Source: Promethearchaeum syntrophicum (GTDB lineage: Archaea; Asgardarchaeota; Lokiarchaeia; Sigyniarchaeales; Promethearchaeaceae). Taken from it: 32,000 bases of DNA. The stretch is taken from contig NZ_CP042905.2 in NCBI RefSeq assembly GCF_008000775.2, forward strand, positions 2,070,001-2,102,000, read 5' to 3'. Below the pieces are notes generated by a model. That model saw only the letters and a program-made list of their open reading frames with translations, did not search any database and had not been told where the DNA came from. The translations under genes and the position numbers were made by a program. How positions within the stretch are numbered: the first letter of the stretch is position 1; the number at the start of each line of letters is the position of its first letter. Of this stretch, positions 1 to 20,091 are shown in pieces.

Positions 1-519
1 CGTTAGTATTTTTATTTTTTTTTGAGTATATCTCATTAAAGTCGAAATTAATTCAATCATCAACGCCTGGTTCTTTGGATCGATTGCAACCATAGGATAT
101 GTTTTTATTTTTAATAGGTCTTCAACACGATCAGGGGTCATATGCCCTTTAAGATCTTGTTTGTTAGCTAGACACACAATTTCACATAGATCATCATCGA
201 TTAGATTTCTTGCGTGATCGATAATTTCCATCGTCGAAAGAACATTTTTTGGAGTCGAATCAGTAACAATAAAGATCAAATCCGAACCATGGATATATTT
301 ACTGAGTTGTTGTTTGATGAATGCTTTTTGACCTCCAAAGTCCCAGATCTTGAAAGGATTTATGTTTGGGTCGTTTAAAGTTGCCAAATTAAAACCCATT
401 GTAGGATTATATCTTCCTGTGATTAATTGCCCACGGATCATTTTAGAGATAGTAGTTTTACCTGTAGCTGGTGCTCCGACAAGACTGATTTTTGCAAATT
501 TTGCAAATTTTTGATCCAT
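1..519 (-). CDS. Arf/Arl-like small GTPase (C-terminal end runs off the left edge; absent from the supplied ORF track)
   Basis: My own reverse translation from ATG (519-517) stays open to position 1: MDQKFAKFAKISLVGAPATGKTTISKMIRGQ...FKIWDFGGQKAF...CLANKQDLKG. It has G1 P-loop GAPATGKT, Arf-type G3 WDFGGQ and G4 NKQD. Confidence 0.85.
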   Translation of the reverse strand, partial: MDQKFAKFAKISLVGAPATGKTTISKMIRGQLITGRYNPTMGFNLATLNDPNINPFKIWDFGGQKAFIKQQLSKYIHGSDLIFIVTDSTPKNVLSTMEIIDHARNLIDDDLCEIVCLANKQDLKGHMTPDRVEDLLKIKTYPMVAIDPKNQALMIELISTLMRYTQKKIKILT

Positions 520-614
520 AATTTTTAACTAGAGTTTACATTCTTTATATTGAGATATCATTGAGATAATATTGTGATAAGAAATAAAAAACAAACAAAC
601 TGAGAATAACCTAA

Positions 615-1391
615 ATGCCGAAAGATATACTTGAATTGGTCCGTGATTTTAATTATTTAGTAAAAGATGCAATTTCTGGCCCAAATTGTATTGATCCTAA
701 AGTGTGTCATGGAGATTGCTGCTTTATTCACATAGATATTCCAAGAATTTTAGCTCAACATTACATTGAAAAGGGTTGGGCAAGTAAAGAAGATTTCAAA
801 CGAGGTTCAACTTTTAGCTTTGAAATTAATGTTGATTTAGACATATTAAAGTGTGTGTTCTTTTCCAAAGAGGTAAATGGTTGTTCTCTGCATATAACTG
901 GAATGAAACCTCCACAGTGTTGGGTATATCCTACTGGTTTAGATCCTGATAAAGTAAATACATCATGTAAAAAAGCAGGTGGTTGGTTTATAAATGATTC
1001 TGTGAGTGTTAGGAACGCTAAAAATATTTTAAGTGATTATGTTTCAATGTGTCAAGCAGAAGCTATAGAAGAAAACTCTCCCGATAAGATAAATCGGAGA
1101 TTACAAGCATTATCTACAGAAAAATTTGATACCCTTACGCCAAGTAGTATTGCCGGAATTGAGGATGATTGGGATAGGTTCAAAATTTTGATAGGCGAGG
1201 GTTATAATTTAGGCGTACGATCTTTTTGTTCAAAAATTGATTGTGGGATTGAATATTTCGAGTGCCCTGTTGTGTGTGAACCTCTGAAGAAAAAATTACT
1301 AAAATTTCTTTCTGAGAAATTATCCCATTTTATTCAACAAAACGGGTTTAAATCTCAATATACATTCATGGAATTAAAAGGACAGAACTGA
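615..1391 (+). CDS. Cysteine-rich putative Zn/Fe-binding protein (YkgJ/UPF0153-like CxxCxxCC family)
   Basis: 258-aa ORF. The N-terminal motif C-IDPKV-C-HGD-CC-F resembles the Cx..CxGxCC signature of YkgJ-type metal-chelating domains. More Cys clusters follow (CSLH..PPQCW, CSKIDCGIEYFECPVVC). Confidence 0.5.
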   Translation: MPKDILELVRDFNYLVKDAISGPNCIDPKVCHGDCCFIHIDIPRILAQHYIEKGWASKEDFKRGSTFSFEINVDLDILKCVFFSKEVNGCSLHITGMKPPQCWVYPTGLDPDKVNTSCKKAGGWFINDSVSVRNAKNILSDYVSMCQAEAIEENSPDKINRRLQALSTEKFDTLTPSSIAGIEDDWDRFKILIGEGYNLGVRSFCSKIDCGIEYFECPVVCEPLKKKLLKFLSEKLSHFIQQNGFKSQYTFMELKGQN

Positions 1392-1607
1392 AATTAATTA
1401 TAAATATGCCGATTTTTGTCGGATCCCACATTGAATAAAATCTTAATTATATTCCAGTCGGACCATCACGATGTTATATCGGATTATATATTATCATCAT
1501 TCTTTTTAACATAACCTTAAATAACTACAATCTTAAAGTTTATTAATGGGTAAATAATTTTTGCTCAAAGTCTACTTTTTGACATAGTTAGAAATGGGAT
1601 TAGGGTT

Positions 1608-1976
1608 TTGGACGTGCAAAAAAAAATGGAAAATGAATTAAGCTTAACCGAATTGACTAAAAAATTCTTCAGTCGAAAATATGAATATATTATTCCTGAA
1701 AATCCAATCAAAGGTAGATCAGGTCAAAAATGGAAATTCAATGCGTTCGTGATGTATGAGAATCAGAAGTACGGTGTGTTTATCCGAGAGTGGAATAGGA
1801 GTATAGGGGTTAACCAGATTCGACAATTGGAGAAAGCTTGTAGGGATACAAAATGTGCAGGTGGAATCATAGTTGGAGATACATTTTCGTGTAATGCAGA
1901 GATTTTTGGAGAGAATTTAGGTATTCAAGTAGTGGAAAGGAGCACCCTAGTCCAAAAAATGCAGAATGGAATATAG
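1608..1976 (+). CDS. Small hypothetical protein with possible restriction-endonuclease-like (Mrr_cat-type) fold
   Basis: 122-aa ORF (TTG start in track; ATG at 1626 is the more likely start). The pattern GVFIREWNRSIGVNQIRQLEKA...GGIIVGDTFSCNAEIFGENLGIQVVERSTL resembles the core of Mrr-like nuclease domains, but the catalytic residues are not clearly present. Confidence 0.3.
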   Translation: MDVQKKMENELSLTELTKKFFSRKYEYIIPENPIKGRSGQKWKFNAFVMYENQKYGVFIREWNRSIGVNQIRQLEKACRDTKCAGGIIVGDTFSCNAEIFGENLGIQVVERSTLVQKMQNGI

Positions 1977-3607: not shown

Positions 3608-3843
3608 TTATACCTTAAAATATCTAATAAATTTACTTTTAAAATCGAATAATTGTATCTGAATGTTTTTTTGGGATTTTACTTTTAGTTTGTTAGGAAA
3701 TACTCATGAAATTTAATTGGCGAGATGACTTATCTGACCCAACTGAATTAAGACTCCCTATTTTTTAGAGAGTGCTGATTATGACGAAGATCTTGAGTAA
3801 TGATCGTTAATTTCGGAGTATTTCCTAAGTGGTGGAATTATAT

Positions 3844-6114
3844 ATGTCTCGTCGCACAAAAATGACTGAAGATATTTTAAAAATGATGGAAAATCCGAAA
3901 CAGATCAGAAATCTTGCTCTAATCGGCCATATAGATCATGGAAAAACAACATTATCTGATTCTCTTTTAGCAGAAGCTGGACTTTTAGCAGAAAGTTTGG
4001 CGGGAGAAGCAAGAGTATTAGATTATCTTGAAGAAGAACAAAGACGAGGCATTACAATAAAATCTGCTAATATTTCATTATATTATGAGCATAGTCTTGA
4101 AAAATCGCTTCCCTTCTTGATAAACTTGATTGACACTCCCGGGCATCTAGATTTCTCTGGGAAAGTTACCCGAGCTCTTCGGATGGCAGATGGTGTCATT
4201 GTTATTGTCGATAGTGTTGAAGAAGTAAGTAGTCAAACAGAAACTGTTGTTCGTCAAGCATTAGATGAAGCTGTCCGGCCAATACTATTTATAAACAAGA
4301 TAGATCGCCTTTTTAAAGAATTAAAACTTGACATGGAAGAAATCAAGGAAAAATTTAGTCGAATCATTCAAGATTTTAACAAATTAATATTCATGTATGG
4401 AGATGAATTGGCTAAATCTAACTGGATGGTTTCAGCTGAATTAGGTTCCGTGATTTTTGGGTCTGCACTTCATAGATGGGGATTTGTAATATCTGATCTT
4501 AAAACAAAAAATCACTCATTACAATATTTTGAAAACAAATACCAAGATGGCACTTATAAAGAAATTTCTTCATTATATCCCGTTTGGAAGAGTGTTCTTG
4601 CAGCTGTTGTTCAATTTGTTCCAGATCCAGCTCAAGCTCAATCTTACAGAACACAAACAATATGGAGTGGGGATATCGAGACTGAAATTGGAAAAGCTAT
4701 TCAAAAATGTGATCCTACTGGACCTTTAGTAATAGGTATGGGGAAAGTTCAAAAAATTAAGAATAGATTAATTGGAACTGGAAGGATATTTTCAGGAACT
4801 TTGAAAAGAGGGCAACATGCATGGCTTGTGAATGATGGATCAAAAACTTCGGTCAATCAATTGAGTATCTTCATGGGTTCTAGAATGGAAACTGTTATAG
4901 AAATTCCAGCAGGTAATATTGCAGCTATAGGTGGCATTAAAAAAATTAGCAGTGGAGAAACAATTTTTGATATTAAAAATATAGATGAAGCTAAACCCTT
5001 TGAGGCTGTAAAATATGTGAGTGAACCTGTTGTAACTGTTGCAGTTGAACCTGATATGTTAAAAAATCTTGCTCAATTACAAGAGATTCTCGAAGATATT
5101 AAAATAGAAGACCCAAATATTAATGTTGAAATTAGCAATGATTCCGGTGAATGTCTGCTATCTGGTATGGGACCATTGCATTTAGAAATCGTTGCAAAAA
5201 CAATAAAAGAAAGAGGTATTGAAGTTTCAGTTTCAAAACCAACAAGCGTATTTCGAGAATCAGTTCAAAAAATTAGTAAATATCACGAAGCAAAAAGCCC
5301 CAATGGATTGAATTCAATACAAATGCTGGTTATGCGTATGGATCCCTCGTCTGTAGAATATTTTAGAGGTGCCAAACGGCATATATTAGAAAATGAATAC
5401 TTACGGATAAACGATTTGAAAGAAAAAACCAATTTTAGTGAATATGAAGCCAAAGGGCTATGGAATGTGGATCGGTTTCAAAATATTATTATTTCTAGAT
5501 TGGAAGAAGATACAGGTATTGTATACAATGAAAATGATGAAATTAGCCCTAAGTCTCTGAAAAAACCAAAATCTCAAAAAGCAAAACCAAGTAGTCAAAG
5601 ACAAATAACTCATGAAATGCGAGATCAAATCATTAAAATCATTGGTAATTTATGCAATAACGGGACAATCGCTAAAGAACCGATGTCAGAATTAAAAATT
5701 ATCATTAAATATGCCCAGATTGTATCCGATCCTGAAGATTCTAATTATTTTGAAATTTCAACGATGATTAATGATGCATTTATCAATTGCATTCGTGAAG
5801 CTCAACCAGTTTTATTAGAACCTATATATCGAATGTTAATAACATCTCCCGAAGAACACATTGGGACAGTGACTTCTCTTATAAATCAATTTCAAGGGAA
5901 AATTAATGAAATCAGCCAGGATGCATTTAAATCATACATTGACGCGAAGATGTCTGTTAGGAAATCAATTTTATTTGCGGATGAAATTCGCGGTCAAACA
6001 TCTGGACGTGTTTTTTGGCAGAATTTATTTGATCGATTTTCACCTGTGCCAGAACATGATTTAGAAGAAATTGTAAAAGATATTAAATTTCGAAAAGGAT
6101 TGGCGTTTTTCTAA
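3844..6114 (+). CDS. Elongation factor 2 (aEF-2/eEF2 family) paralog, divergent translocase-like GTPase lacking the diphthamide histidine
   Basis: G1 GHIDHGKTT, G3 DTPGHLDF and G4 NKIDR are present with EF-2 domain order, and the C-terminal QPVLLEPIY motif is present. MSRRTKMTEDIL (ATG 3844) matches the usual aEF-2 N-terminus better than the GTG at 3829. The domain IV tip reads VSDPEDSNYFEIS where HxDxxHRGxxQ is expected. Confidence 0.85.
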   Translation: MSRRTKMTEDILKMMENPKQIRNLALIGHIDHGKTTLSDSLLAEAGLLAESLAGEARVLDYLEEEQRRGITIKSANISLYYEHSLEKSLPFLINLIDTPGHLDFSGKVTRALRMADGVIVIVDSVEEVSSQTETVVRQALDEAVRPILFINKIDRLFKELKLDMEEIKEKFSRIIQDFNKLIFMYGDELAKSNWMVSAELGSVIFGSALHRWGFVISDLKTKNHSLQYFENKYQDGTYKEISSLYPVWKSVLAAVVQFVPDPAQAQSYRTQTIWSGDIETEIGKAIQKCDPTGPLVIGMGKVQKIKNRLIGTGRIFSGTLKRGQHAWLVNDGSKTSVNQLSIFMGSRMETVIEIPAGNIAAIGGIKKISSGETIFDIKNIDEAKPFEAVKYVSEPVVTVAVEPDMLKNLAQLQEILEDIKIEDPNINVEISNDSGECLLSGMGPLHLEIVAKTIKERGIEVSVSKPTSVFRESVQKISKYHEAKSPNGLNSIQMLVMRMDPSSVEYFRGAKRHILENEYLRINDLKEKTNFSEYEAKGLWNVDRFQNIIISRLEEDTGIVYNENDEISPKSLKKPKSQKAKPSSQRQITHEMRDQIIKIIGNLCNNGTIAKEPMSELKIIIKYAQIVSDPEDSNYFEISTMINDAFINCIREAQPVLLEPIYRMLITSPEEHIGTVTSLINQFQGKINEISQDAFKSYIDAKMSVRKSILFADEIRGQTSGRVFWQNLFDRFSPVPEHDLEEIVKDIKFRKGLAFF

Positions 6115-6178: not shown

Positions 6179-8233
6179 ATGAATATTAGAAATATACTTA
6201 ATAAAAATAGAACTAAGCAATTTTTTTTTCTATTTCTAATTTACATTTTAATTACCTTAGTGTCATTTTCTAATTTTTCATTTAAGCCATCAAGTTCTGA
6301 ATCTATTCACTTGAAAGTTGGAGCTTATGAGAACAGCCCGAAGATTTTTACCAACGAACAAGGTGAGATTGATGGTTTTTTCCCTTCGATTTTAGGTCAT
6401 ATTGCTGATAAAGAGGGATGGGAATTGGAATATATTCATGGAAATTGGAGTGAAAGTTTAGCCCTCCTTAAGGCAAATCAAATAGATATTTTACCTGATG
6501 TTGGTTTTTCATACGATCGTCAAATGGAGTATGATTTTAATAATGAATCTGCGATAACTGGTTGGGGTATTGCTTATACCCATGATGAATCAGATATCTA
6601 TTCTATGCAAGATTTAAAAAATAAAAAGATCGGAGTAATGAAAGATGATATTAACTATATTGGACCCTTGGGAATAAAAATTATATCTGATCAAAATAGA
6701 TTAAATTGTACTTTTGTTGAATATGATAGCCTTGAAGATGTTTTAACTAGTTTAAATCTCAAAATCGTTGATGTGGGCATCGTAAATGAGTTTTTTGGAA
6801 ATTTAAATGCTTATAAATTTGATGTGAAAAAAACTTCAATCGCGTTTAATCCTATCGATTTTAAATTTGCTTTTCCTAAAAATGCAAGTTTAAATTCGTT
6901 CTTGATTGAGAAAATAGATAATTGGTTAAAGACTTCTAAAAGTGACCTTGATTCTATCTATTATCAAGAAGCCGAAATATACTTATCTGATCAAGAAAGT
7001 TCAATTCCTTCATGGATATTCCCTAGCTTTTTAATTTTAATCGGTTTAGCTGCATTTTTAACAATTTCTGCAATGACTTTGAGATATCAAGTAAAAATTA
7101 GAACGAAGAGTTTACATGATTTAAACCAAGAATTAAGTACAGAATCAATCCAGAAGAAAAATCAATTAGCAAATATTGTAGAAAATTCAAACGATGGGAT
7201 TATTAGTGCTGAATTAGATGGAACAATTAGGTCTTGGAATAAAAGTGCAGAAGTTATTTTTGGTTTTTCATCAGAAGAGATTATTGGAAAAAAATTAGAT
7301 CTTATAATTCCGTCAAATCGTTTTAATGAGGTCAAATATATTATTGATAAAATAAAGCAAGGAGAGCCTGTCAATCATTTTGAAACTAAACTTATGAGAA
7401 ACGATGGTAAACTTCTCGATATATCAATAACAGCTTCTCCATTAAAAAACCTAAAAGGTAAAATTAATGGCTTTTCCGCAATTGGACGCGATTTTACAGA
7501 AACAATTGAGAGACAAAAATTATATCAAGACCAAATTCTAAAAGCCTCTAAATTTAAATCAGATTTCATGGCTTCTATGTCACACGAATTAAGAACCCCT
7601 TTGAATAGTATCATCGGCTTTACCGATGTCATTTTAGAAAGAATAAGTGGGGAAATTAATGAGGAACAAGATAAATACCTCACACATGTAAAAACTTCAG
7701 CTATGCTTCTATTAGATTTAATAAACGATATTTTAGATATTACAAAAATTGAATCGGGTAAAATGGAACTGAATATTGAAGAGGTCAATCTAAGTCAGAT
7801 AATTAGTCAAGTTGATACAATGATAAAACCAATATACATGAAAAAAAGCCTAATTTTTGAAGTGCAAGAAATTGATAAAGAGAAAGTTATTCGAGTAGAT
7901 CGGTTGAGGTTTAAGGAAATACTTTTTAATCTACTTAGTAACGCTGTGAAATATACAAAAGAAGGAAAAATTATGATAAAATTTTCAGAGGAAGAAGAGT
8001 TTTGGAAATTTGATGTAATAGATACGGGTATAGGAATCAAAAAAGAAAATTTTGACATCTTGTTCAAAGATTTTAGAAGGATTGCTTCTAAATATGTAGT
8101 GGCAACAGAAGGAACAGGGCTCGGATTATCTTTGTCTAAAAGATTAGTCGAATTCCATGGAGGAACTATTTCTTTTACCAGCACTTTCGGAAAAGGGTCA
8201 AAATTTACATTTACAATTCCAAAACAATTATAA
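6179..8233 (+). CDS. Membrane sensor histidine kinase: extracytoplasmic solute-binding-protein-like domain, TM, PAS, HisKA, HATPase_c
   Basis: N-terminal TM/signal anchor FFFLFLIYILITLVSF. An SBP_bac_3-like region follows (LKVGAYENSPKIF..GEIDGFFPSILGHIA..), then a second TM (WIFPSFLILIGLAAFLTISAM) and a PAS domain. The kinase core has H-box SHELRTPLNSIIGF, N-box LLSNAVKYT, G1 DTGIGI and G2 GTGLGLS. Confidence 0.9.
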   Translation: MNIRNILNKNRTKQFFFLFLIYILITLVSFSNFSFKPSSSESIHLKVGAYENSPKIFTNEQGEIDGFFPSILGHIADKEGWELEYIHGNWSESLALLKANQIDILPDVGFSYDRQMEYDFNNESAITGWGIAYTHDESDIYSMQDLKNKKIGVMKDDINYIGPLGIKIISDQNRLNCTFVEYDSLEDVLTSLNLKIVDVGIVNEFFGNLNAYKFDVKKTSIAFNPIDFKFAFPKNASLNSFLIEKIDNWLKTSKSDLDSIYYQEAEIYLSDQESSIPSWIFPSFLILIGLAAFLTISAMTLRYQVKIRTKSLHDLNQELSTESIQKKNQLANIVENSNDGIISAELDGTIRSWNKSAEVIFGFSSEEIIGKKLDLIIPSNRFNEVKYIIDKIKQGEPVNHFETKLMRNDGKLLDISITASPLKNLKGKINGFSAIGRDFTETIERQKLYQDQILKASKFKSDFMASMSHELRTPLNSIIGFTDVILERISGEINEEQDKYLTHVKTSAMLLLDLINDILDITKIESGKMELNIEEVNLSQIISQVDTMIKPIYMKKSLIFEVQEIDKEKVIRVDRLRFKEILFNLLSNAVKYTKEGKIMIKFSEEEEFWKFDVIDTGIGIKKENFDILFKDFRRIASKYVVATEGTGLGLSLSKRLVEFHGGTISFTSTFGKGSKFTFTIPKQL

Positions 8234-8973: not shown

Positions 8974-9354
8974 ATGAGAACCAAAAAAGTTTACATAGTT
9001 GAAGATAATCCACTAAATATTGAACTTTATTTAGCAATTCTTAACCAAATTGAAAATATAGAAGTTTTTGTAGAAAAACAAGGTGATAAAGGATTAAATC
9101 TTATTAAATTAGGAGATCCTGATTTATGCATATTAGATTACGATATTCCTGTTCTAAATGGAGTTAAAATCTGTAAAGAACTTAGAAAAATCGAAAAATT
9201 TCAAAAAATACCAATTATTGTAATATCTTCATCCCCTATTAAGGGAAATAAAGATGATATATTTCGAGAAGCTGGTTTTGATAAATGGTTCGAAAAACCT
9301 TTGAATGTTAAGGAATTTAAAAATAACATTACAAATTTGTTGTTTCAAAATTGA
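8974..9354 (+). CDS. Single-domain CheY-like receiver (divergent paralog), upstream of and co-directional with a Rag-like GTPase gene
   Basis: VYIVEDNPLN...LCILDYDIPVLNG...IPIIVISSSPIKGN...WFEKPL. This is the receiver fold signature but is clearly more divergent than the three other receivers in the window. Confidence 0.8.
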   Translation: MRTKKVYIVEDNPLNIELYLAILNQIENIEVFVEKQGDKGLNLIKLGDPDLCILDYDIPVLNGVKICKELRKIEKFQKIPIIVISSSPIKGNKDDIFREAGFDKWFEKPLNVKEFKNNITNLLFQN

Positions 9355-11182: not shown

Positions 11183-12319
11183 TTAACGTTTTAAATAAAT
11201 CGACACAATATCTCCATCTTCTAAATTATGGTCTGTTTGTATAAATTTTTGCCCTGGATGTTTGGCAGATTTTCCCCAGACTAATGCATATCGGTAGTTA
11301 ATTAAGAACCTTTTGTGCAGTTTCAAGCAAAGCTTTTTAATATTATCTCCTTTATGAAGAATGATAGGTTCACTCATATCAACCTCTTTTTGAGGGGGTT
11401 TTAGGTAAACACGGATTAATTCCAGCTCTTGAAAAATTTGATGTCGTAATTTATCAATATTTTCTTTATTCAGAGCTGAAATTTTGACCCAATGATTGTG
11501 CCCGATTTTGTTTGTGATTTCTTCATCTTTTATTTTCTTTTTTGCTAAATCTTTTTTGTTTATAACTACAAATTCCTTTGTATAGATTCGATTTCCCATT
11601 ATATGGTCAATCAGCTGATCTGGAGTTACATGAGGTTCAGAAAAATATACACTTGCGTTGCTAAAACCCATTTCATTTAGAATTCCCTTTACTTCTTCCC
11701 GATCCATATCTTGATGTCCATTATATGTAAATCCAATTCCACCACGATTTGTCTTTGTTATCTGAATTCTGGGGGGTTTTTCATTTAAACGCATTCCTGC
11801 ATTAAAAAGTTCTTGTCTTATAGTTGTAAGGTGGGAAAATTCAATGGACCCATCTGGAAGAAAACAAATCAAATTTAAAATCAAATCAGCACTACGAACC
11901 GCACCGAGAATTTCTCTCCCTCTCCCTTTTCCACTTGCTGCTCCAAGAATAATACCAGGTAGATCGATCAGCTGTATTTTTGCTTCTTCTATATCCATCA
12001 TTCCAGGAATCGCTGTTAATGTGGTGAAATCATAAGATGCAACTTTTGAATCTGTATTTCCTCTTGTAAGAAGGTTAAGTAGAGAAGATTTCCCTACTGA
12101 TGGAAATCCAATAAACGCTACTTGGGAATCTCCCGTTTTCTTAACCCCAAATCCAGAACCTCCTCCTTTTTTGGAAGTTGCAATTTTGATGAGGTCATTT
12201 CGGAGCTTTGCAATTTGTGCTTTCGTATAATTTATTGCTTTCTGCGTAGCTTTATTTTTTTGAGTGCGACTAAGCCGTTCTTCAAAATCCCGAATTTTCT
12301 CTTCTATTTTTTCACTAAT
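11183..12319 (-). CDS. drg: DRG-family (developmentally regulated GTP-binding protein, Obg-like) GTPase with C-terminal TGS domain; proposed non-canonical ATT start
   Basis: The track ORF (11183-12001) begins at MMDIEEAKIQLIDLPG, which is the G3 motif. My translation shows the same frame stays open upstream to 12325. That stretch encodes ISEKIEEKIRDFEERLSRTQKNKATQKAINYTKAQIAKLRNDL...VAFIGFPSVGKSSLLNLLT, the DRG N-terminal helix plus the G1 P-loop. The TGS-like C-terminus is IRVYLKPP...GDIVSIYLKR. There is no ATG/GTG/TTG between the in-frame TGA (12326-12328) and 12001. Confidence 0.8.
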   Translation of the reverse strand: MSEKIEEKIRDFEERLSRTQKNKATQKAINYTKAQIAKLRNDLIKIATSKKGGGSGFGVKKTGDSQVAFIGFPSVGKSSLLNLLTRGNTDSKVASYDFTTLTAIPGMMDIEEAKIQLIDLPGIILGAASGKGRGREILGAVRSADLILNLICFLPDGSIEFSHLTTIRQELFNAGMRLNEKPPRIQITKTNRGGIGFTYNGHQDMDREEVKGILNEMGFSNASVYFSEPHVTPDQLIDHIMGNRIYTKEFVVINKKDLAKKKIKDEEITNKIGHNHWVKISALNKENIDKLRHQIFQELELIRVYLKPPQKEVDMSEPIILHKGDNIKKLCLKLHKRFLINYRYALVWGKSAKHPGQKFIQTDHNLEDGDIVSIYLKR

Positions 12320-12325
12320 TTTTTG

Positions 12326-12334
12326 TCACACTCC
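12326..12334 (-). promoter_or_regulatory. Shine-Dalgarno-like element GGAGTGTGA, 6 nt upstream of the proposed ATT start of the DRG gene
   Basis: The minus strand reads GGAGTGTGA-CAAAAA-ATT AGT GAA. The purine-rich element resembles the GGAGGTGA core complementary to the archaeal 16S 3' end. Confidence 0.35.
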
Positions 12335-12534: not shown

Positions 12535-12930
12535 TTAAGATGTAATAGATGTTATTTCAATTTCTAATAATCTTTGAATTTTCTTTCTGAACTCGATTAT
12601 ATTTAATGGTTTTGATATATAATCACTAAATCCTGAATCTACTATTCTTTCTTTATCTCCTTTCATCGCAAATGAGGTTACAGCGATAATTGGTGTGCTC
12701 TTAAACTTGTCCATCTTCCGAATTTCTTCACAAATTTCTGTTCCATTAATTCCTGGAAGTTGAATATCTAGAAGAATAATATCCGGATCTTCGGATTTAA
12801 TTAATTCAAGGCCGTCTATTCCATTCTCCTTGGTTAAAATTTCTAGATTCGGGATCATTCCTAAAACGGCTTTGAATAACTCCAAATTTTTTTTATTATC
12901 TTCAACAATAATGATTTTTTTCAAATTCAT
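12535..12930 (-). CDS. Single-domain CheY-like response regulator receiver
   Basis: KIIIVEDNKKN...IILLDIQLPGING...TPIIAVTSFAMKGDKERIVDSGFSDYISKPL. It is a close paralog of the receivers at 8272 and 19696 and is transcribed divergently from the GTPase gene at 13182. Confidence 0.9.
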   Translation of the reverse strand: MNLKKIIIVEDNKKNLELFKAVLGMIPNLEILTKENGIDGLELIKSEDPDIILLDIQLPGINGTEICEEIRKMDKFKSTPIIAVTSFAMKGDKERIVDSGFSDYISKPLNIIEFRKKIQRLLEIEITSITS

Positions 12931-13181
12931 ATACTTCCCTAATAGAATTCTGTTTATTGTACTTGTATTAACATGATTATATTTATCATTAATTTTGGGA
13001 AATTTTCTAAAAAAAACTTATCTAAACATTAGATTTATTCTTGATTTTTTTCTCAATTCTATGATTAAATGTAATGTAAAAAGAAATTAAGGAAAATATG
13101 TTTTTAGCAAGTAATTACTATACATAATTTATATTTCATGTAATTTAATGTAAAAAAAAATAATTAAACGGTAATTAAAAA

Positions 13182-14471
13182 ATGCCCAAAGGAATCGTTC
13201 TAGTTGGATGGGATAATAAAATGGGATCTACAATTGAGGTGAAATTCCCAAAGGATTATCAAATCCAAAATAAAAAAATAACTCAGTATTTGGTAACTCT
13301 ACAAACTTTCGGAAGAAGTTCAAATATTCAAATTCGAGATAATGAGGATATAATTTTAATTTTTGGTTATCCGGTAAGAGAAGGGCCTGCAAATTATGAC
13401 TTTATTATTGTAATTCTGGATAGTTTAGAGGAATCCGAAATTCCAAAAATTCAAAGTAAACTAAATCTTGAAGGAGGAAATATTTTAAAAACTCCCAAAC
13501 CTAAAAGATCAAAATTATTCCTGGATTTTGCAGGAAATTTCATCAAACAGGAACAAAAGAAAATAGTTTTTATGGGATATCCGAATTCAGGGAAAACTAC
13601 AACAAAATTATTCTTTTTTGAGAAGATTCAGAGTGAGAAACTTTTAGAAACTACATTTACGCCCACAAAAGGAATTGAAACGGATCGGTATAGTTTAATT
13701 GATTCGAATATTGCATTATTTGATACTTCTGGCCAAGAAATTGAAAGATGGTTTAACATAGATGAAACTCCTTTAATTGGTTCTGACCTAACAATTTTCT
13801 TTATAACAGCAATGGATTGGAAACGAAACCCAGAGAAGGTAAAAAATGATTTAAATAGACTTATTCAACTCTCTGAAAAACTTGATGAGTCTGATCACGA
13901 TTTAGTTCTATTCTGCCATAAATTTGATGAAATTACTGAGAATATAGAAGAATTTAAAATAAGTCTTATAGATTTCACTCAAACGTTAGATATCTCTGTA
14001 TTTTTCACTTCAATTAAAGATACGGGGAATTTTGATATTTATATTGGTTATCAACTCATGTTGAGAAAATTCTCACCACTATTTGCTTTTATAAATAATT
14101 CACTCAATCCACTTATGAGCAGGTATCAACAAAGCGGAAATCTCCTATTTATTCTCGATTCTGATTTCACTCTAATCACAGATTTTACTCATAGCATTGA
14201 GGATTTTGATGTGGCGAACATCCAACAGTTTAAAAGTACTACAATCAAAATGATGAAAATTATTAATTTAGATGATAATAAATCTAGTGATTTCATTACT
14301 TTTACTTACGAATCAAGTGCTAAAATAGTCGTTTGTTTAAGAATATCTAAATTTAATCCCGATTTTTCTTATGTTATAATGCAAGCTGATTCATATCAAC
14401 TTGTGGATGAAATCTATAAGGAATATAATAAAATGAAAGAGAATTTTACGTGGGTAGAGCATAATAATTAA
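13182..14471 (+). CDS. Three-part small GTPase: N-terminal longin/uDENN-like domain, Rag/Gtr1-like G domain, C-terminal roadblock-like domain
   Basis: The N-terminal ~100 aa (GIVLVGWDNKMGSTIEVKFP...DFIIVILDSLEESEIPKIQ) have an alpha/beta regulatory-domain pattern. The G domain has G1 GYPNSGKTT, G3 FDTSGQE and G4 variant HKFD. The C-terminal part is GNLLFILDSDFTLITDF...KIVVCLRIS. Confidence 0.7.
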   Translation: MPKGIVLVGWDNKMGSTIEVKFPKDYQIQNKKITQYLVTLQTFGRSSNIQIRDNEDIILIFGYPVREGPANYDFIIVILDSLEESEIPKIQSKLNLEGGNILKTPKPKRSKLFLDFAGNFIKQEQKKIVFMGYPNSGKTTTKLFFFEKIQSEKLLETTFTPTKGIETDRYSLIDSNIALFDTSGQEIERWFNIDETPLIGSDLTIFFITAMDWKRNPEKVKNDLNRLIQLSEKLDESDHDLVLFCHKFDEITENIEEFKISLIDFTQTLDISVFFTSIKDTGNFDIYIGYQLMLRKFSPLFAFINNSLNPLMSRYQQSGNLLFILDSDFTLITDFTHSIEDFDVANIQQFKSTTIKMMKIINLDDNKSSDFITFTYESSAKIVVCLRISKFNPDFSYVIMQADSYQLVDEIYKEYNKMKENFTWVEHNN

Positions 14472-14513: not shown

Positions 14514-14516
14514 GGT

Positions 14517-15668
14517 TTATTCAGTTAAATTTCTTAATTTAAACACTTTTCTCAGTTCTGACATTACATCATTTCTATTCGGTTTAACTTTTTGTTGCAC
14601 TTTTTTCTTTGGTGGGGGAGGAGGAGGTTGAACTATTTGTTTATTTGATGATTTCACTTCAATATTTTTTGTACTTGGAATTTTTCCTAGATTCGATCCT
14701 CCAATTATACCTTTTAATTCTTGAAATTGATTCATTATTGAACTATTTAACTTAATTACCATTTCTGAAAGAATTGAAACTTGTTCTTCTAAATTTTTTG
14801 CAATTTTATCTGGACCGAAAAATTGCTTAAAGGATTTTGCAAATTCGGGCTCATTTGCATAGAAATTATAAATACTCGATTGAATTAATTCAAAACTAAA
14901 TTTCTTCTCATTAAGCGATGTTGAGATTATTTCAGAGATCATTTCTAAATTAATTTGAAAATCTACTTCTTGACGTATATCAGGATCTGATTTATGTAAG
15001 AGTACTAATACATATGGATTTTCTTTGAAATAACTCACTATATCTAGAATTTTATCAAAATATTCTATTGATTCATCAAAACGTTCCGAATCTTGGATAT
15101 CTATAACATAGATAATTAAATCGATATGTAAGAAAAATTCTTCTGGATTTTTTAAATAATCCTGCCTGTGGAATTCTTGTCCACCGAAATCCCATATCGT
15201 TAAATTAAAATTTTCAACTTCAATTTTTTGAATGTCCACTCCTTTTGTAGGAGGAAGATTAGTTATATCGCCAAATTTTGTTTTTCCTTTTAAGCTTTCA
15301 AGCATGGATGTTTTTCCTGCGTTATTAAGACCCAAAACTATTATTTTTTGCTTGGATTTTTTTAAATAAAGTGATCTTTTTTTCCATGCTCTTGATAATA
15401 ATTCAGCTGTTAAAATCCATTTTTCGAATAGTTCTTCACTAATACTAGTTTCTTTTGCAATTTTTTTAATTTTTTCAGATTTTAATTTTACAAAATCTCT
15501 AATTTGGGTGATTTTGTATTTTTTAAGTTTCTCTCCATATTCATTCTTGCATTCTTTTAAAACGCTTGGATTCATATTCAAAATTTCTGAAAAAGAATTT
15601 GGTGTTTTTTCAACAACAAGAAATTTCTTACAAAAAATATCGATTATTTTTTCTTTATCTGTTGACAT
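14517..15668 (-). CDS. Arf/Rag-like small GTPase with N-terminal extension, C-terminal coiled coil, poly-proline tract and WH2-like tail
   Basis: G1 GLNNAGKTS (Arf-like GLDxAGKT), G3 WDFGGQE and G4 variant HKSD. The C-terminus is ...QPPPPPPKKKVQQKVKPNRNDVMSELRKVFKLRNLTE. Confidence 0.8.
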   Translation of the reverse strand: MSTDKEKIIDIFCKKFLVVEKTPNSFSEILNMNPSVLKECKNEYGEKLKKYKITQIRDFVKLKSEKIKKIAKETSISEELFEKWILTAELLSRAWKKRSLYLKKSKQKIIVLGLNNAGKTSMLESLKGKTKFGDITNLPPTKGVDIQKIEVENFNLTIWDFGGQEFHRQDYLKNPEEFFLHIDLIIYVIDIQDSERFDESIEYFDKILDIVSYFKENPYVLVLLHKSDPDIRQEVDFQINLEMISEIISTSLNEKKFSFELIQSSIYNFYANEPEFAKSFKQFFGPDKIAKNLEEQVSILSEMVIKLNSSIMNQFQELKGIIGGSNLGKIPSTKNIEVKSSNKQIVQPPPPPPKKKVQQKVKPNRNDVMSELRKVFKLRNLTE

Positions 15669-15746: not shown

Positions 15747-18700
15747 CTAAATTAATTTCTTGGGTAATGTAAATGAAAAGGATGAACCTTCACCCAATAC
15801 ACTGGTAAATGTGATATGTCCTCCGTGAAGTTCAATTAACTTTTTTGTCAACATCAACCCCAATCCAGTTCCTTCAATAGATTCCACATAATCTGATTCA
15901 ACTCTCTTAAATTCTTGAAAAATAATTCCAAAATCCTCTGGTGCAATCCCAATTCCAGTATCAATTATTTTAAATTTCCAATTCTTTTCATCTTCCATAA
16001 AATCTAATTTTATTCCGCCTTTTTCAGTATATTTGATAGCATTACTTAAGAGATTTAGAAGTATTTCTTTAAACCTTATCGGATCTGCATTAATAATTGT
16101 GCCTTTTTCAAACCCAACTAACTCAAAATTCAATCCTTTTTTTTTATAAAGTGGTTTTACTTCGATTTCAATTTGAGAAACCAAATTCAATAAATCAAAA
16201 TCTCTGTACTTTAATTCTACTTTTCCTGCTTCTATTTTTGAAATATCTAAAATATCATTTATTAGATTTAATAAGTGTTCTGCCGATGTTCTGACGTTAT
16301 TAAGATAATGATCTTGTTTTTCGTTCACATCTCCATAGAATTTCTCAATCAAAATATCTGTAAAGCCAATGATACTATTTAATGGAGTTCTTAGTTCATG
16401 AGACATTGATGCCATAAAATCAGATTTAAATTGGGAAGATTTAATAAGTTGATCTTGATATTGTTTTTGCTGCTCTAATGATTCAGTAACATCACGAGAA
16501 ATCGAGGAAATTCCAACAATATCTCCCTTTAAATCTAAAATTGGGGAAATTGTCACATTAACACTTAATACCTTTCCATCTTTTCTAAGACGTTTAGTTT
16601 CAAACAATTTGTAGGATTCACCTTGAACAACTTTTTCTATTAAGTTGGGAATCTCTTCCATGCGATCAGGTGGAATCAACATGCTTATTGATTTTTCTAA
16701 AACTTCCTCCAATGCATAACCATATATTCTTTCAGCACCCTTATTCCATGATTTAATCATTCCCTCTTTATCCATGCTTACAATCGAATCTGATGAAGTT
16801 CCAACAATACTTGCTAATCTCTTCGTTTCTAATTTATATTCTATACTGATTATTCCTAATTTAATTCGTGTTAAAATTTCTTTTAATAATCTTTTTTCTT
16901 CATCTAAAAATTCCTTATTAATTTCATAAACTACCTCAATTTTCAATGGAATATCATTAATTTTATCAGAAATGGTTAATTTCCATTCGGATTCTTTAAA
17001 ACTTGTTGTTTGGGCTTGATTTTCTCCATAAATTATTTTTACCATAGTTATTTCTGGATATTGCCATGATGAACGAATCAGAGGTAGAACTCCATAGAGC
17101 AATTCCTTGATGGTAATGTCTGGTACAACTAAAAGACTGGAAATTCCATATAAACATTTTAATCCTTTAATCCTGACTTGAAGCATTAATTCGGATTCCA
17201 AAATTTGTTTTTCTTTTTTTTTCCGGTCAGTAATATCTTCAAATATTTCTAAAAGTGCCGGTTTTCCATTGAAATTTTCAATTTTTGTGGAACTAATCTC
17301 AAAATCTCGTTCTTCGTCAAATTTTGACAAAAATAATTTGTCCTCAAATTTTAAAGATTTAATATTCTGACTGAGTGATTTGTTTCTCAGTGGACACATA
17401 TCATCACATGGTTGCTCTCTGCCTCTTAAAATTTTATAACATATCTTCCCGTCAAGAATTCCGTCATATATTTTAGAAGAGCTTCTATTATGGAATAAAA
17501 TTTCATAATCTTCAGATATTACAAAAACGGGATAATTTAGAGTATTTAATATAATATTTAATTGATTTTTTGAATTTTCCAGCTCCCTAGTCCTTAATTC
17601 TACCTTTTGATCTAAATCCAAATTTAAATTTCGTAATCTGAATTCTGTTTCCTTTAATTTATTCTCCCGTGATTTACTTTCAGTAATATTTCTGACAAAA
17701 ACAGCAATTTTATTCTCATCATAGAAAAACAATCTCGCCTCAAAAATTTCAATTATCTCATTTTGTTGTTTTAAAGGAAATTCAACTACCTGTGGTTTTT
17801 TTGTTTTAAATACTTCTAAAGATTTTTCTTCAATCAATTTTGAAATCTTATTTGGAAAACCAATAAAAAGATCTTTTCCCAATAAATTATCTAAAGGAAC
17901 GTGAAGTAAATTTTTATCTCCGTGAAATTCCAAGACATCTCCCTTTTTAGAGAGTAATAAAAATAAATCAGGAATAGCTTGAAAAATGGTTGTAAATTTT
18001 TTAAGTGAATTTCTTAAATTTTTCTCATTTTTTTTCTGAATCTTATAATAACGCATTTTTGCGATTCCTAAGGAGAGATTATTCACCATTTTTGATATTA
18101 ATTCCACATCATCTTCATCGAATGTGTTTTTATTTCCTGAATATATGCCTAACACACCAATTACAATATTCTCTATAATGATTGGGATTGAAATTGATGA
18201 TAGAAAACCTGATCCATCGAAAACAGTTTTCCAATTTTTAAATTTTTTTTCTGCACTTAAATCGTTAATAATATAATTTTTTCTTGTTCTTATCGCTGTT
18301 CCGCTAGGACTTTGATCTTTTACAGATTCGGACCATGTAAATTTCAATTTTTTTCCATCATATTTAGAATTATCAAAGATATTATATCCAGCTAAAGCAA
18401 CTGGTTTTATTGATTTTTCTTCATCATATTGGACTAACCCAATCCAACAAAATTGGTAATTTTTAAATTGAATAATCTCTTCACAAAATTCTTGAAACAT
18501 TCCCATTTCATTTTTTGCATTTGAAATTAGAAAGTTAGTTTGACCTTGAATAAAGGTTAATTTCTCAATCTTTCTCTGTCGCGTTATGTCAGTTCCTAAG
18601 CTAAGAACACCTTCAATATTCCCTTTTTTATTATATACATTAGAATTATGCCATCTAATGATTTTTTCTAATCCTTTTTTAGTTTGTACAGCATTTTCAA

Positions 18701-18932
18701 AATAATCTACTTCTTTTTCACCATTTATCACCTTATTAAAAACTCTCTCCATTTCTTCCCTTTTAGAATGAGGAATACAAGTTTTGAACCAATTTTTACC
18801 CAATATTTCATTTTCTCTATATCCAAGTATTTTGTTACCCTTTACGTTAATATAAAGTATTTTCCCTTTTCTATCTAATTGTAGAACTATCGCATCAATA
18901 ATGTTCAAATATTTTCTATCGTTTCCAATCAT
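15747..18932 (-). CDS. Cytoplasmic multi-sensor histidine kinase (PAS-GAF-PAS-PAS-uncharacterised module-PAS-HisKA-HATPase_c)
   Basis: 1061 aa with no TM segments. It has PAS-like blocks, a GAF-like block (FCWIGLVQYDE...IGVLGIYSG), H-box SHELRTPLNSIIGF, N-box LLSNAIKYT, DTGIGI and GTGLGLM. Confidence 0.9.
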   Translation of the reverse strand: MIGNDRKYLNIIDAIVLQLDRKGKILYINVKGNKILGYRENEILGKNWFKTCIPHSKREEMERVFNKVINGEKEVDYFENAVQTKKGLEKIIRWHNSNVYNKKGNIEGVLSLGTDITRQRKIEKLTFIQGQTNFLISNAKNEMGMFQEFCEEIIQFKNYQFCWIGLVQYDEEKSIKPVALAGYNIFDNSKYDGKKLKFTWSESVKDQSPSGTAIRTRKNYIINDLSAEKKFKNWKTVFDGSGFLSSISIPIIIENIVIGVLGIYSGNKNTFDEDDVELISKMVNNLSLGIAKMRYYKIQKKNEKNLRNSLKKFTTIFQAIPDLFLLLSKKGDVLEFHGDKNLLHVPLDNLLGKDLFIGFPNKISKLIEEKSLEVFKTKKPQVVEFPLKQQNEIIEIFEARLFFYDENKIAVFVRNITESKSRENKLKETEFRLRNLNLDLDQKVELRTRELENSKNQLNIILNTLNYPVFVISEDYEILFHNRSSSKIYDGILDGKICYKILRGREQPCDDMCPLRNKSLSQNIKSLKFEDKLFLSKFDEERDFEISSTKIENFNGKPALLEIFEDITDRKKKEKQILESELMLQVRIKGLKCLYGISSLLVVPDITIKELLYGVLPLIRSSWQYPEITMVKIIYGENQAQTTSFKESEWKLTISDKINDIPLKIEVVYEINKEFLDEEKRLLKEILTRIKLGIISIEYKLETKRLASIVGTSSDSIVSMDKEGMIKSWNKGAERIYGYALEEVLEKSISMLIPPDRMEEIPNLIEKVVQGESYKLFETKRLRKDGKVLSVNVTISPILDLKGDIVGISSISRDVTESLEQQKQYQDQLIKSSQFKSDFMASMSHELRTPLNSIIGFTDILIEKFYGDVNEKQDHYLNNVRTSAEHLLNLINDILDISKIEAGKVELKYRDFDLLNLVSQIEIEVKPLYKKKGLNFELVGFEKGTIINADPIRFKEILLNLLSNAIKYTEKGGIKLDFMEDEKNWKFKIIDTGIGIAPEDFGIIFQEFKRVESDYVESIEGTGLGLMLTKKLIELHGGHITFTSVLGEGSSFSFTLPKKLI

Positions 18933-18983
18933 AAGTTTGCTACCTTATCTAGTAGTTAAAAAAAGAAGTATATATCATATATA

Positions 18984-19616
18984 TTACTTCATGCCTTCTG
19001 GTGAAAACATATTATTTAACACATTTTCTATCTCTTTAGCGGATTCTCTCATCATTTTAATATAATTTAAAAAATCTCCTTCTGAAATTTCAGTTTTTTG
19101 TTCTATGATTAAATCACAAAATCCTAAAATCGTGTTAACTTCGCCTCTAATTTTAACATTAAAAGATTCTAAAGGCACTAAATATTCCTTATTCATAAAC
19201 ATTGAATGAATTTTAACAAAAAAATCCAAAAATGCAGCATTATCATCAGTTAAAATTCGTTTGGTTCCAATCTTTCGAAATAATTCTTCAATTTGCTGAA
19301 AAATAAATGTAGATATCACTGGTAATTCTGCATCTCTTAAAAATATTAAAGCATAAGATTGTTTTCCTCCTCTTGCACTTGCATCTTCCACTTCTATTTT
19401 GCAAACTTGAGAATAAAATTTCTTATAATCTAAATAAACATATTTATTAGTTGTATTCAACGAATCTCGAAGTAAATCTCTGATGAAATCTTCATCTTTA
19501 ATATCGATTGATGAATAAAGAGATGTAGGACCTAAGATCTGGTCATATTTTCCAATAATTAATAAAAATTGCTCTTTATCTAGCCATTTTTTGAAATTGC
19601 TGTATTTTTCCGACAT
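18984..19616 (-). CDS. Longin/roadblock-like domain protein with a C-terminal His-less DHp (HisKA-like) helix pair
   Basis: The N-terminal part is FLLIIGKYDQILGPTSLY...SYALIFLRDAELPVISTFIFQQIEELF. The C-terminal NVKIRGEVNTILGFCDLIIEQKTEISEGDFLNYIKMMRESAKEIENVLNNMF aligns by eye to MSHELRTPLNSIIGFTDILIEKFYGDVNEKQDHYLNNVRTSAEHLLNLINDIL of the adjacent kinase, with Val at the phospho-His position. Confidence 0.55.
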   Translation of the reverse strand: MSEKYSNFKKWLDKEQFLLIIGKYDQILGPTSLYSSIDIKDEDFIRDLLRDSLNTTNKYVYLDYKKFYSQVCKIEVEDASARGGKQSYALIFLRDAELPVISTFIFQQIEELFRKIGTKRILTDDNAAFLDFFVKIHSMFMNKEYLVPLESFNVKIRGEVNTILGFCDLIIEQKTEISEGDFLNYIKMMRESAKEIENVLNNMFSPEGMK

Positions 19617-19695
19617 TTTAACGCCATGAATTTTTTATTAAATAATTTAAGAAGAATATTTTTAAAAATAAAATTCTCCAAAATAGGAGATCCGT

Positions 19696-20091
19696 TCATA
19701 TCCTTAATAAGTTTTGAATTTTCTCTCTAAAATTTTTAATAAGTAATGGCTTTGATATATAATCATTAAAGCCAGATTCTAATATTCGTTCCTTATCTCC
19801 TTTCATAGCAAATGAAGTTACAGCAATAATAGGAGTTTTATTAAATTTTTTATCTTTTCGAAGTTGTTTACAAATATCTGTTCCACTTATATCGGGAAGT
19901 TGAATATCTAATAAAATTATATCTGGATTACTTGAATATATTAAATTAAGACCATCTCTGCCAGTAGCTGAGGTTAGAATTTCTAAATTTGGGATAGTCG
20001 CTAAAACTGCTACAAATAATTCCAGATTTTTTTCATTATCTTCGATGATATATATTTTCTTCTTCAAATTATTTCCTCCATTTTCATGCAC
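19696..20091 (-). CDS. Single-domain CheY-like response regulator receiver (first gene of a 4-gene co-directional array)
   Basis: KIYIIEDNEKN...IILLDIQLPDISG...TPIIAVTSFAMKGDKERILESGFNDYISKPL. An alternative TTG start sits after an internal GGAGGA (..AATGGAGGAAATAATTTG..). Confidence 0.9.
   Translation of the reverse strand: MHENGGNNLKKKIYIIEDNEKNLELFVAVLATIPNLEILTSATGRDGLNLIYSSNPDIILLDIQLPDISGTDICKQLRKDKKFNKTPIIAVTSFAMKGDKERILESGFNDYISKPLLIKNFREKIQNLLRI

Follow-up and report, generated by a model that had tools for sequence, protein, structure and literature searches.

The stretch analysed here (the window) comprises 32,000 nucleotides of the chromosome of Promethearchaeum syntrophicum MK-D1, the first cultured Asgard archaeon (NZ_CP042905.2, positions 2,070,001 to 2,102,000; G+C content ~28%), in which genes of two-component signalling are interleaved with genes for small GTPases of the Arf/Rag type. 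We show that the window contains the MK-D1 version of a signalling island that is conserved across Lokiarchaeia. The island includes the gene for a 210-aa protein, denoted LD here (18984-19616, minus strand; DSAG12_02452, annotated 'hypothetical'), in which a longin domain is followed by a DHp hairpin that has lost the phospho-acceptor histidine. MK-D1 encodes 74 small GTPases in ~4.3 Mb, so that ~0.3 would be expected per 20 kb, vs. 4 seen here. A first-pass annotation of the window, made from the sequence alone, had read this clustering as a candidate circuit in which phosphotransfer controls the GTPases. The genes that it listed are all in place, and its domain calls hold in Pfam searches (curated cutoff for Gtr1_RagA, 22 bits) and, for LD and GTPase 13182, in AlphaFold2 (AF2) models and Foldseek searches. 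The features are as follows (position in the window, strand, description); genes are referred to below by their first coordinate, and the GTPase families are denoted G435 (including 13182), G512 (including 9575), G490 (including 14517) and G293 (no member in the window).

1-519 (−): Arf-like single-domain GTPase with an NKQD G4 motif; the open reading frame (ORF) leaves the window (Pfam Arf, 2e-17)
6179-8233 (+): membrane sensor histidine kinase, at the edge of the island in MK-D1 (Pfam)
8272-8691 (−): single-domain, CheY-like receiver, catalytic residues kept (Response_reg, 4e-25)
8974-9354 (+): single-domain receiver; GTPase 9575 follows on this strand after 220 bp (Response_reg, 1e-16)
9575-11077 (+): Rag-like GTPase of the G512 family, HKID G4 motif (Gtr1_RagA, 1e-14, 54.8 bits)
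12535-12930 (−): single-domain receiver, divergent from GTPase 13182 (Response_reg, 2.5e-25)
12931-13181 (no strand): intergenic region of 251 bp that separates the divergent genes of receiver 12535 and GTPase 13182 (from the coordinates)
13182-14471 (+): Rag-family GTPase of the G435 family, HKFD (Gtr1_RagA, 9e-8, 32.3 bits; Arf, 2e-7)
14517-15668 (−): Arf/Rag-like GTPase of 383 aa, a short G490 member, HKSD (Arf, 8e-24; Gtr1_RagA, 4e-22, 79.2 bits)
15747-18932 (−): histidine kinase, cytoplasmic, PAS-GAF-PAS; H-box SHELRTPLN intact, ATPase domain present (Pfam)
18984-19616 (−): LD, FLCN/NPRL2-type longin (aa 15-141) and His-less DHp hairpin (aa 146-201) (Pfam, AF2, Foldseek)
19696-20091 (−): single-domain receiver, first gene of the receiver-LD-kinase-GTPase array (Response_reg, 5e-23)
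23833-26754 (−): third PAS histidine kinase of the window (Pfam)

Four of these genes encode receivers without an output domain, as the first-pass annotation had stated: each matches Response_reg only (1e-16 to 4e-25), is 126-139 aa long and retains, in the alignment, the acidic pair, the acceptor Asp, the Thr/Ser and the Lys. Both PAS histidine kinases that it had placed among the GTPases (6179-8233 and 15747-18932) were recovered by Pfam. Kinase 6179 combines a transmembrane (TM) segment, an extracytoplasmic SBP_bac_3 domain (7e-11), a second TM segment, PAS (2e-15), HisKA (3e-18) and HATPase_c (7e-27), in this order, the TM segments being hydrophobic segments in the translation. Receiver 8272 is 65-66% identical to receivers 12535 and 19696, and three of the window receivers are paralogues with 65-73% identity; taken together, the kinases and receivers of the window are recent paralogues (53-73% identity), which indicates that local duplication contributes. 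The co-directional array that runs from receiver 19696 through LD and kinase 15747 to GTPase 14517, its last gene, has spacers of 79, 51 and 78 bp, in agreement with the 51-79 bp given previously, as is the case for the 251-bp region between receiver 12535 and GTPase 13182. No stand-alone roadblock gene was found in the window by Pfam.

The description of LD as a longin-like protein with a His-less DHp domain is borne out by Pfam (Folliculin and HisKA), by AF2 and by Foldseek. LD matches Pfam Folliculin at 5.7e-5, just over the gathering score, and 18 of the 21 family members match as well. In the AF2 model (predicted local distance difference test (pLDDT) 82), a longin fold with the topology beta-beta-alpha-beta-beta-beta-alpha (aa 15-141) is followed by a hairpin of two antiparallel helices (146-172 and 179-201). 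The best PDB matches in Foldseek are the NPRL2 chains of GATOR1 (probability 1.0, E 7e-5 to 1e-3); further matches are a chain of the active FLCN complex, a Lokiarchaeal longin and, over the whole length, sensor kinases. At the sequence level, aa 151-203 match the DHp domains of the three window kinases with E 4.5e-6 (non-iterated hidden Markov model (HMM) search), Pfam HisKA matches 7 of the 21 LD family members (best 1e-3), and the LD profile retrieved multi-HisKA (HisKA-repeat) proteins at 2e-20 from 1.84 billion representatives. Against PDB sequences the profile returned nothing significant, with a weak DHp match at E 0.7. The position of the phospho-acceptor His is occupied by V154 (nt 19155-19157) in MK-D1 and by L, M or V in relatives; the protein ends after the hairpin and lacks, besides the acceptor His, the ATP-binding CA domain. 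Invariant in the hairpin are R157, three residues past the His position, and T162, I163, G165 and F166 (T-I-x-G-F). A DENN domain was found in LD neither by Pfam nor by profile searches, the C-terminus being the HisKA-like hairpin instead.

The longin domain of LD contains two further sets of invariant residues, namely, L28-G29-P30 (the 'GP motif', between strands 18-25 and 29-35, i.e., beta1 and beta2), next to which it carries Y24-D25, and D78, A81, R82, G83 and Y88 in the beta4-beta5 loop (R82, nt 19371-19373). FLCN and NPRL2 are the subunits with the catalytic arginine in their complexes. In a local alignment, D78, A81, R82, G83 and Y88 of LD fall on D160, A163, R164, G165 and Y170 of FLCN, with z ~1.3, which is not significant alone (the FLCN and NPRL2 sequences were compared with PDB chains to set the residue numbering); given this score, we rate the assignment of R82 as an arginine finger as likely, not as proven. 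The combination of a GP motif and an arginine finger is the described signature of eukaryotic longin GTPase-activating proteins (GAPs), present also in some Asgard longins, and the eukaryotic proteins act as longin pairs (PMC12290439). The longin domain of LD could be paired by homodimerisation through the DHp hairpin or with the longin of G435 described below. The family has 35 representatives among the 1.84 billion proteins searched, and all genome loci with LD belong to Promethearchaeota except for two metagenome-assembled genomes labelled Odinarchaeota. In other Lokiarchaeia, two proteins of ~390 aa (P0250 and P0252) have the layout PAS-longin-DHp, with a sensor joined directly to the candidate GAP, which is consistent with LD being regulated by signals.

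The first-pass annotation had counted four Arf/Rag-like GTPases, three of them with extra domains. Pfam confirms all four, GTPase 1-519 lying outside the conserved island. Replacement of NKxD by HKxD at G4 is a trait of Rag/Gtr proteins, RagA in our alignment showing HKMD; it occurs in 13182, 9575 and 14517 (HKFD, HKID and HKSD, respectively), and 1-519 has NKQD. The glutamine of DxxGQ, which in Arf/Rag GTPases is taken to mean that the arginine comes in trans, is retained in all four. As to the extensions, they are present in the three larger proteins, and the roadblock/longin type does not extend to 14517, which has no roadblock. GTPase 13182 (429 aa, QEE16619, 100% identity) consists in the AF2 model (pLDDT 74.5) of an N-terminal longin (aa 2-121), the G domain and a C-terminal roadblock (aa 322-428). 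Over ~330 columns, it is matched best in Foldseek by RagA/RagC and Gtr1/Gtr2 and by crystal structures of Lokiarchaeal Rag proteins (8yl2/8zla, for which no paper was found in the literature search); MglB/MglC also match, in the roadblock domain only. The best PDB match of the G435 profile is human RagA (6e-11), extending into the C-terminal domain. In the G435 longin, W10 is invariant, D11 is near-invariant, and an arginine with the R-x5-Y spacing is present in most members; an hhalign comparison with LD is not significant (E 0.55) but aligns WD with YD and R-x5-Y with R-x5-Y. The W-D motif has a likeness in C9orf72. Together, the W-D motif and the R-x5-Y arginine make a mixed longin pair or a GAP acting in cis conceivable.

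GTPase 9575 (500 aa, QEE16616, 100% identity; the LD protein is QEE16622, also 100%) clusters with a family of 20 members of ~511 aa and is composed of a G domain, a weak winged-helix region, a longin/roadblock-like domain and a coiled coil. The supplement of Tran et al. 2024, based on AF2 models, labels it 'GXLX' and 13182 'LGR'; the C-terminal longin/roadblock-like domain of 9575 is taken from that label, and the winged helix-turn-helix matches of its homologues are below threshold. GTPase 14517 has an N-terminal helical domain, the G domain, a coiled region, poly-Pro and a C-terminal amphipathic helix, with no C-terminal roadblock in the alignment. The C-terminus of G490 proteins (14520-14627, minus strand; also L013-L049 among the related loci described below) runs from a lysine-rich stretch to a conserved PPPPPP and, 10-25 residues on, to a conserved amphipathic helix, R..(I/M)SELK..F.K(K/R)G(L/I). 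The possibility that this tail is a poly-Pro and WH2 module was discarded, Pfam WH2 matching none of nine C-termini at E up to 10; an equally good guess from the sequence would be a polybasic amphipathic membrane anchor.

To place these genes in context, we used the gene surroundings of six homologues of GTPase 13182 and two larger samples of loci. Sample 1 consists of 48 loci fetched around LD homologues in species-representative genomes; the ORFs of the 47 that have an LD gene were annotated with HMMs made from the window receivers, kinases and G domains. Because this sample was selected via LD, a second one, independent of that choice, was taken from 80 metagenome contigs centred on G512, the family of the 500-aa GTPase. 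In both samples, LD, two-component genes and the four Rag-like GTPase families form one island with a shared map: a receiver transcribed leftwards; G435 → G512; kinase ← kinase ← G293 ← LD; and G490 → receiver. The units are (a) a receiver with a single domain; (b) a tight G435-G512 pair with roadblock/longin domains, divergent from that receiver; (c) LD followed by G293 and one or two PAS/GAF histidine kinases, convergent on G435-G512; and (d) G490, divergent from LD, followed by a receiver or a DHp-receiver protein. In the 47 LD-centred loci, 319 of the 455 genes encode LD, a kinase, a receiver or a GTPase, at defined offsets from LD; beyond ~7 positions from LD, the genes are mostly unrelated.

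The succession G435-G512 was observed in 50/56 and 11/23 cases in the two samples (median gap 2.5-3 bp), which suggests a heterodimer like that of Rag/Gtr proteins, obligate pairs of two paralogues joined by their roadblock domains; LD was followed by G293 in 27/44 and 10/23 cases (gap ~20 bp) and by a kinase, as in the window, in 11/44 and 6/23; and LD and G490 were divergent in 21/42 and 11/24. A kinase is convergent with G512 at its 3' side in 34 of ~60 cases, and, where three neighbours are available on each side, 19 of 21 G512 genes have a two-component gene among these neighbours. In most genomes, LD is part of a co-directional unit together with a GTPase and one or two kinases. The best-conserved pair is the divergent stand-alone receiver upstream of G435 (27/40 metagenome loci and 9/21 genome loci), with a median spacer of 165 bp (range 142-382, 27 loci); receiver 12535 and GTPase 13182, to which the first-pass annotation had drawn attention, are the MK-D1 copy of this pair with 251 bp, and it recurs in the relative loci L002, L004 and L009. 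The order of receiver 8974 and GTPase 9575 (receiver before a 500-aa GTPase) also occurs in L004, the receiver-LD-kinase-GTPase array of the window in L002/L003, and orthologues of kinase 15747 lie within the island in L002, L004, L009, L010 and L011. Beside homologues of 13182, a receiver and a kinase were found at 75%, 68% and even 37% identity. The MK-D1 copy itself is rearranged: it has receiver → LD → kinase → G490-type GTPase, a receiver divergent from G435 and a receiver upstream of G512, with a DRG gene inserted.

These findings bear on the simplest explanation, that a genome rich in small GTPases and two-component genes, with 74 of the former in MK-D1 and three kinases and four receivers in the window alone, would show such clusters by chance. 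It is refuted by the finding that dozens of species-level genomes and metagenome contigs share these families and their order, and the drop to mostly unrelated genes beyond ~7 positions from LD points the same way; we regard chance as extremely improbable. The first-pass annotation had further emphasised a repeated adjacency of receivers and GTPases. Family-specific pairs are conserved, as shown above, but receiver-GTPase adjacencies overall are not in excess of those in within-locus label shuffles (42 vs. 37.5 ± 4.5). The conserved signal is thus the island and its family-specific pairs, and a general adjacency rule was dropped. The test by which the first-pass annotation could have been refuted, loss of the adjacency in related genomes, did not refute it, as both samples of Lokiarchaeial loci show the island conserved.

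Three genes of the window were considered as members of the island or of its design and rejected. GTPase 1-519 has NKQD, is a singleton in clustering and lies five unrelated genes away; no counterpart of it was found beside the island in related loci. Kinase 6179 was considered as a conserved, amino-acid-sensing input; an SBP_bac_3 domain was found in none of 56 other loci (L001-L057), and, being seen in the MK-D1 locus only, the kinase is MK-D1-specific and falls outside the conserved design. Family-3 solute-binding domains often bind amino acids, and in MK-D1 this kinase, with its extracytoplasmic domain of that family, adjoins Rag-like GTPases in an amino-acid-fermenting organism. The inserted DRG gene (11183-12331, minus strand) was considered as a fifth island GTPase; it encodes a housekeeping DRG/TGS protein and occurs only in the Promethearchaeum arrangement.

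It appears that the two-component proteins and the Rag-like GTPases function as a single system, physically linked by LD. The strongest candidate coupler is LD, with its hallmarks of a GAP longin; free receivers that would contact roadblock domains are a weaker candidate. We give even chances to the reading that LD is an arginine-finger GAP, or a GAP subunit, for the neighbouring Rag-like GTPases, and that its pseudo-DHp hairpin dimerises it and docks a phosphorylated receiver or a kinase. Under this scheme, the PAS/GAF kinases (in MK-D1, also the kinase with the solute-binding domain) would phosphorylate the CheY-like receivers; the pseudo-DHp hairpin would form a four-helix bundle that pairs two longin domains and would present the face on which receivers usually dock, and would thereby let a bound phosphorylated receiver or kinase switch LD. 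LD would then give R82 as an arginine finger to the neighbouring GTPases with DxxGQ and HKxD; candidate clients are G490 and G293, and possibly the G435-G512 pair, in which the longin of G435 has the partner-type W-D motif. The GTPases may relay their state through their own extra domains, i.e., roadblock dimers, the winged helix or the poly-Pro/amphipathic tail. A parallel for the switching step is DivL of Caulobacter, a kinase module without the phospho-acceptor His that is used in reverse to sense a phosphorylated single-domain receiver, DivK~P (PMC4211667). DivL differs in that it retains the CA and PAS domains and controls the kinase CckA, whereas LD is a hairpin only, fused to a longin.

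Several observations weigh against this reading. The pairwise alignment of LD with FLCN, as noted, falls short of significance, and an hhalign comparison of LD with a single NPRL2 sequence gave nothing significant. The AF2 models are monomers only, and the pseudo-DHp hairpin may do no more than dimerise the protein. The LD family being narrow, any mechanism is specific to Lokiarchaeia. The island tolerates rearrangement, MK-D1 lacking G293 and having G435 split from G512, and the G435 orthologue in the Lokiarchaeum ossiferum lineage has no two-component neighbours; the shuffle result given above belongs here as well. In addition, Tran et al. 2024 concluded that, as a rule, the GTPase genes of MK-D1 do not share operons with genes for roadblocks or longins.

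Some of the same facts would fit mere co-location, in which the modules are kept together by co-expression or shared descent and the hairpin of LD is a kinase-derived dimeriser with no phospho-crosstalk. Besides the lack of excess adjacency, the rearrangement in MK-D1 and the loss around the Lokiarchaeum G435 orthologue, the recent paralogy of the window kinases and receivers agrees with this explanation. What speaks against it is that, in each of the two independent samples, the genes keep their order and orientation at protein identities as low as 37-50%, that LD, which joins both worlds physically, is the most constant member, and that its hairpin retains residues typical of helix 1 of HisKA (R157, T162, I163, G165 and F166), beyond the needs of a generic coiled coil. 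We consider co-location alone unlikely.

The direction of the signal was weighed with the help of known systems that combine kinases and small GTPases. The first-pass annotation had named the Frz and MglA/MglB proteins of Myxococcus as precedent. The likeness from receiver to GTPase stands: kinase-fed receiver proteins (RomR-RomX, FrzX-FrzZ) act on a small GTPase with a GAP of the roadblock/longin superfamily (PMC4316618). In Myxococcus, however, the genes are dispersed, the GTPase is MglA and not of the Rag type, and the GAP is a roadblock dimer with neither an arginine-finger longin nor a kinase-derived domain; the role of RomRX is itself under revision (PMC13408092). The window genes do not constitute an MglA/MglB module either, the GTPases scoring as Rag/Arf and MglB/MglC matching only the fused C-terminal domain of 13182.

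By analogy of gene arrangement, the closest genomic precedent is instead the actinobacterial conservon (CvnA-D, MfpA-E), an operon of a histidine kinase, a roadblock protein and a small GTPase, which interact, with no classical response regulator (PMC4316618). Conservon and island share a histidine kinase, a protein of the roadblock/longin superfamily and a Ras-superfamily GTPase, in the absence of a DNA-binding response regulator, and the conservon GTPase is held to belong to the output (PMC4316618). The differences are considerable: the conservon GTPase belongs to MglA group 2, whereas those of the island are Rag-like; single-domain receivers are present in the island only; CvnB is a plain roadblock with neither a DHp nor an arginine-finger longin, in place of which the island has the longin-DHp protein; and CvnC has no island counterpart, while the island has four GTPase families, several of them fused to longin or roadblock domains. 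Compared with the conservon set (CvnA kinase with an LPxR tail, CvnB, CvnC and CvnD), the gene content of the island differs.

A flow of information as in the conservon would run in reverse: the GTPases and LD would act upstream and set kinase or phosphatase activity, the nucleotide state of the GTPase-LD complex being passed on through mixed bundles of the pseudo-DHp hairpin or contacts with the kinase DHp, and the receivers would be the output. The shared co-directional unit of LD, a GTPase and one or two kinases, which resembles CvnA-D (PMC4316618), is in line with this possibility, as are the closeness of the LD hairpin to the DHp domains of the window's own kinases and the lack of output domains in the receivers. 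Conversely, the conserved GP motif and arginine of LD point to GTPase catalysis as opposed to mere sensing, the kinases have several PAS/GAF input domains of their own, and the PAS-LD fusions suggest that LD receives signals. On balance, we find the reverse flow, which is the main rival reading, rather unlikely, although the two directions, into the GTPases and into the kinases, are not mutually exclusive.

The eukaryotic longin GAPs (GATOR1 NPRL2-NPRL3, FLCN-FNIP and C9orf72-SMCR8) offer a further comparison. They possess a longin with a GP motif and an arginine finger (PMC12290439), of which LD has the former and a candidate for the latter, and their clients are Rag GTPases with a C-terminal roadblock, GTPase 13182 best matching RagA/C and Gtr1/2. 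They differ in that LD has neither a DENN nor the NPRL2 C-terminal domain but a His-less DHp, and in that the regulators next to it in the island are two-component proteins, not amino-acid sensors; TOR kinase is absent according to Liu et al. (2020/2021). It is possible, if doubtful, that the island is a living prokaryotic counterpart of the nutrient switch that eukaryotes have in Rag-GATOR1/folliculin, and perhaps related to the ancestor of that switch, with His-Asp phosphotransfer as the original Rag input. In such a case, a receiver-gated LD would act on the Rag-like heterodimer G435-G512 and on accessory Rag-like GTPases, and the PAS/GAF kinases, in MK-D1 also the kinase with the SBP domain, would hold the place later taken by the eukaryotic amino-acid sensors. 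As the LD family is confined to Lokiarchaeia, claims on eukaryotic ancestry stay speculative.

Part of what is described here was known. Liu et al. report Asgard NPRL2-like longins fused to two-component domains and propose that growth control stays two-component-centred, with eukaryote-like regulators; this is the same idea as that of the island at the level of domain architecture. In its accessible text, that work deals with domain fusions; it does not cover the island or the four GTPase families that partner LD, nor does it mention that LD has lost the His and carries the GP/arginine hallmarks. The longin- and roadblock-fused Rag-like GTPases of MK-D1 are known from Tran et al. 2024, and the question of GTPase partners for Asgard longins with a GP motif was raised in a 2025 survey of longin GAPs (PMC12290439). 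Neither the island, nor LD as a longin fused to a His-less DHp, nor the GTPase families that partner it were described in any paper found in our literature search, which also returned none that names these protein accessions or an Asgard kinase-GTPase neighbourhood. The view of the first-pass annotation that the arrangement had not been characterised thus stands for the island and is to be narrowed for the fusions of longin and two-component domains.

Asgard genomes encode many Rag/Arf-like GTPases, longins and roadblocks, and the pairing of regulators with GTPases is an unsolved question, in which genome layout is of no help according to Tran et al. 2024. For one family, the island proposes a concrete solution, made up of four GTPase families, a single longin of the GAP type, and the kinases and receivers that accompany them. 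The organism is in culture, and the island proteins are small and soluble enough for in vitro work; the naming of partners that can be tested in a cultured Asgard archaeon is what makes the island of high interest. If the coupling is true, a eukaryote-type GTPase switch would be driven by prokaryote-type phosphotransfer, with a bearing on the origin of the Rag/GATOR/folliculin system, and LD would be a second repurposed pseudo-kinase module after DivL.

Additional genes recur around the island. In many Lokiarchaeia (L021, L024, e.g., 1932-2681, L032, L035, L043, L047 and L052, among others), G490 adjoins a gene for a ~220-290-aa protein with a possible ribbon-helix-helix N-terminus, a DHp domain with the His kept and a receiver, but no ATPase domain; no DHp-receiver gene of this type is present in the window. 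The layout resembles that of a Spo0B-like phosphotransfer protein and suggests a multi-step relay. Many islands (L010-L056 and L059-L135) are flanked on the left by a trio of co-directional genes for ~510-570-aa proteins (e.g., '.562>.560>.514>' in L028), which do not match the HMMs of the window receivers, kinases and G domains; given this trio, the conserved neighbourhood may extend past the signalling genes. In Lokiarchaeum ossiferum and a relative (L005, 9214-11281; L007, 9227-11293), a homologue of 13182 with 42% identity always has upstream of it a gene for a ~233-aa conserved protein, for which no Pfam match was found.

The remaining observations concern other genes of the window. The reading frame of the DRG-type gene (MMR_HSR1_Xtn and TGS) is intact, and its product is 91% identical to a 382-aa orthologue in L010. 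The GTG that aligns with the start of the orthologue directly precedes a TGA, and the next ATG, GTG or TTG comes only at codon 111; the GenBank call (272 aa) and the RefSeq call (309 aa) would both lack the P-loop. Possible causes are initiation at a non-canonical codon (ATT/ATA), an error in the sequence or damage to the gene. The ORF 3829-6114 (+) encodes a 761-aa protein similar to EF-2/EF-G (GTP_EFTU, EFG_III and EFG_C, domain IV being weak), possibly the divergent EF-2 paralogue that Asgard archaea are known to have. In the 128-aa product of 20635-21021 (+), the N-terminal part has a hydrophobic segment, and a unit of ~20 aa, (I/L)IQKE(D/E)NGGGGPQ..., occurs five times in tandem. Finally, the 853-aa translation of 27035-29596 (−) contains a pair of ABC ATPase cassettes (GISGSGKST and GNNGTGKTT), with a multi-TM region behind them, and, judging from the translation only, looks like a fused energy-coupling factor transporter, EcfA-EcfA'-EcfT.

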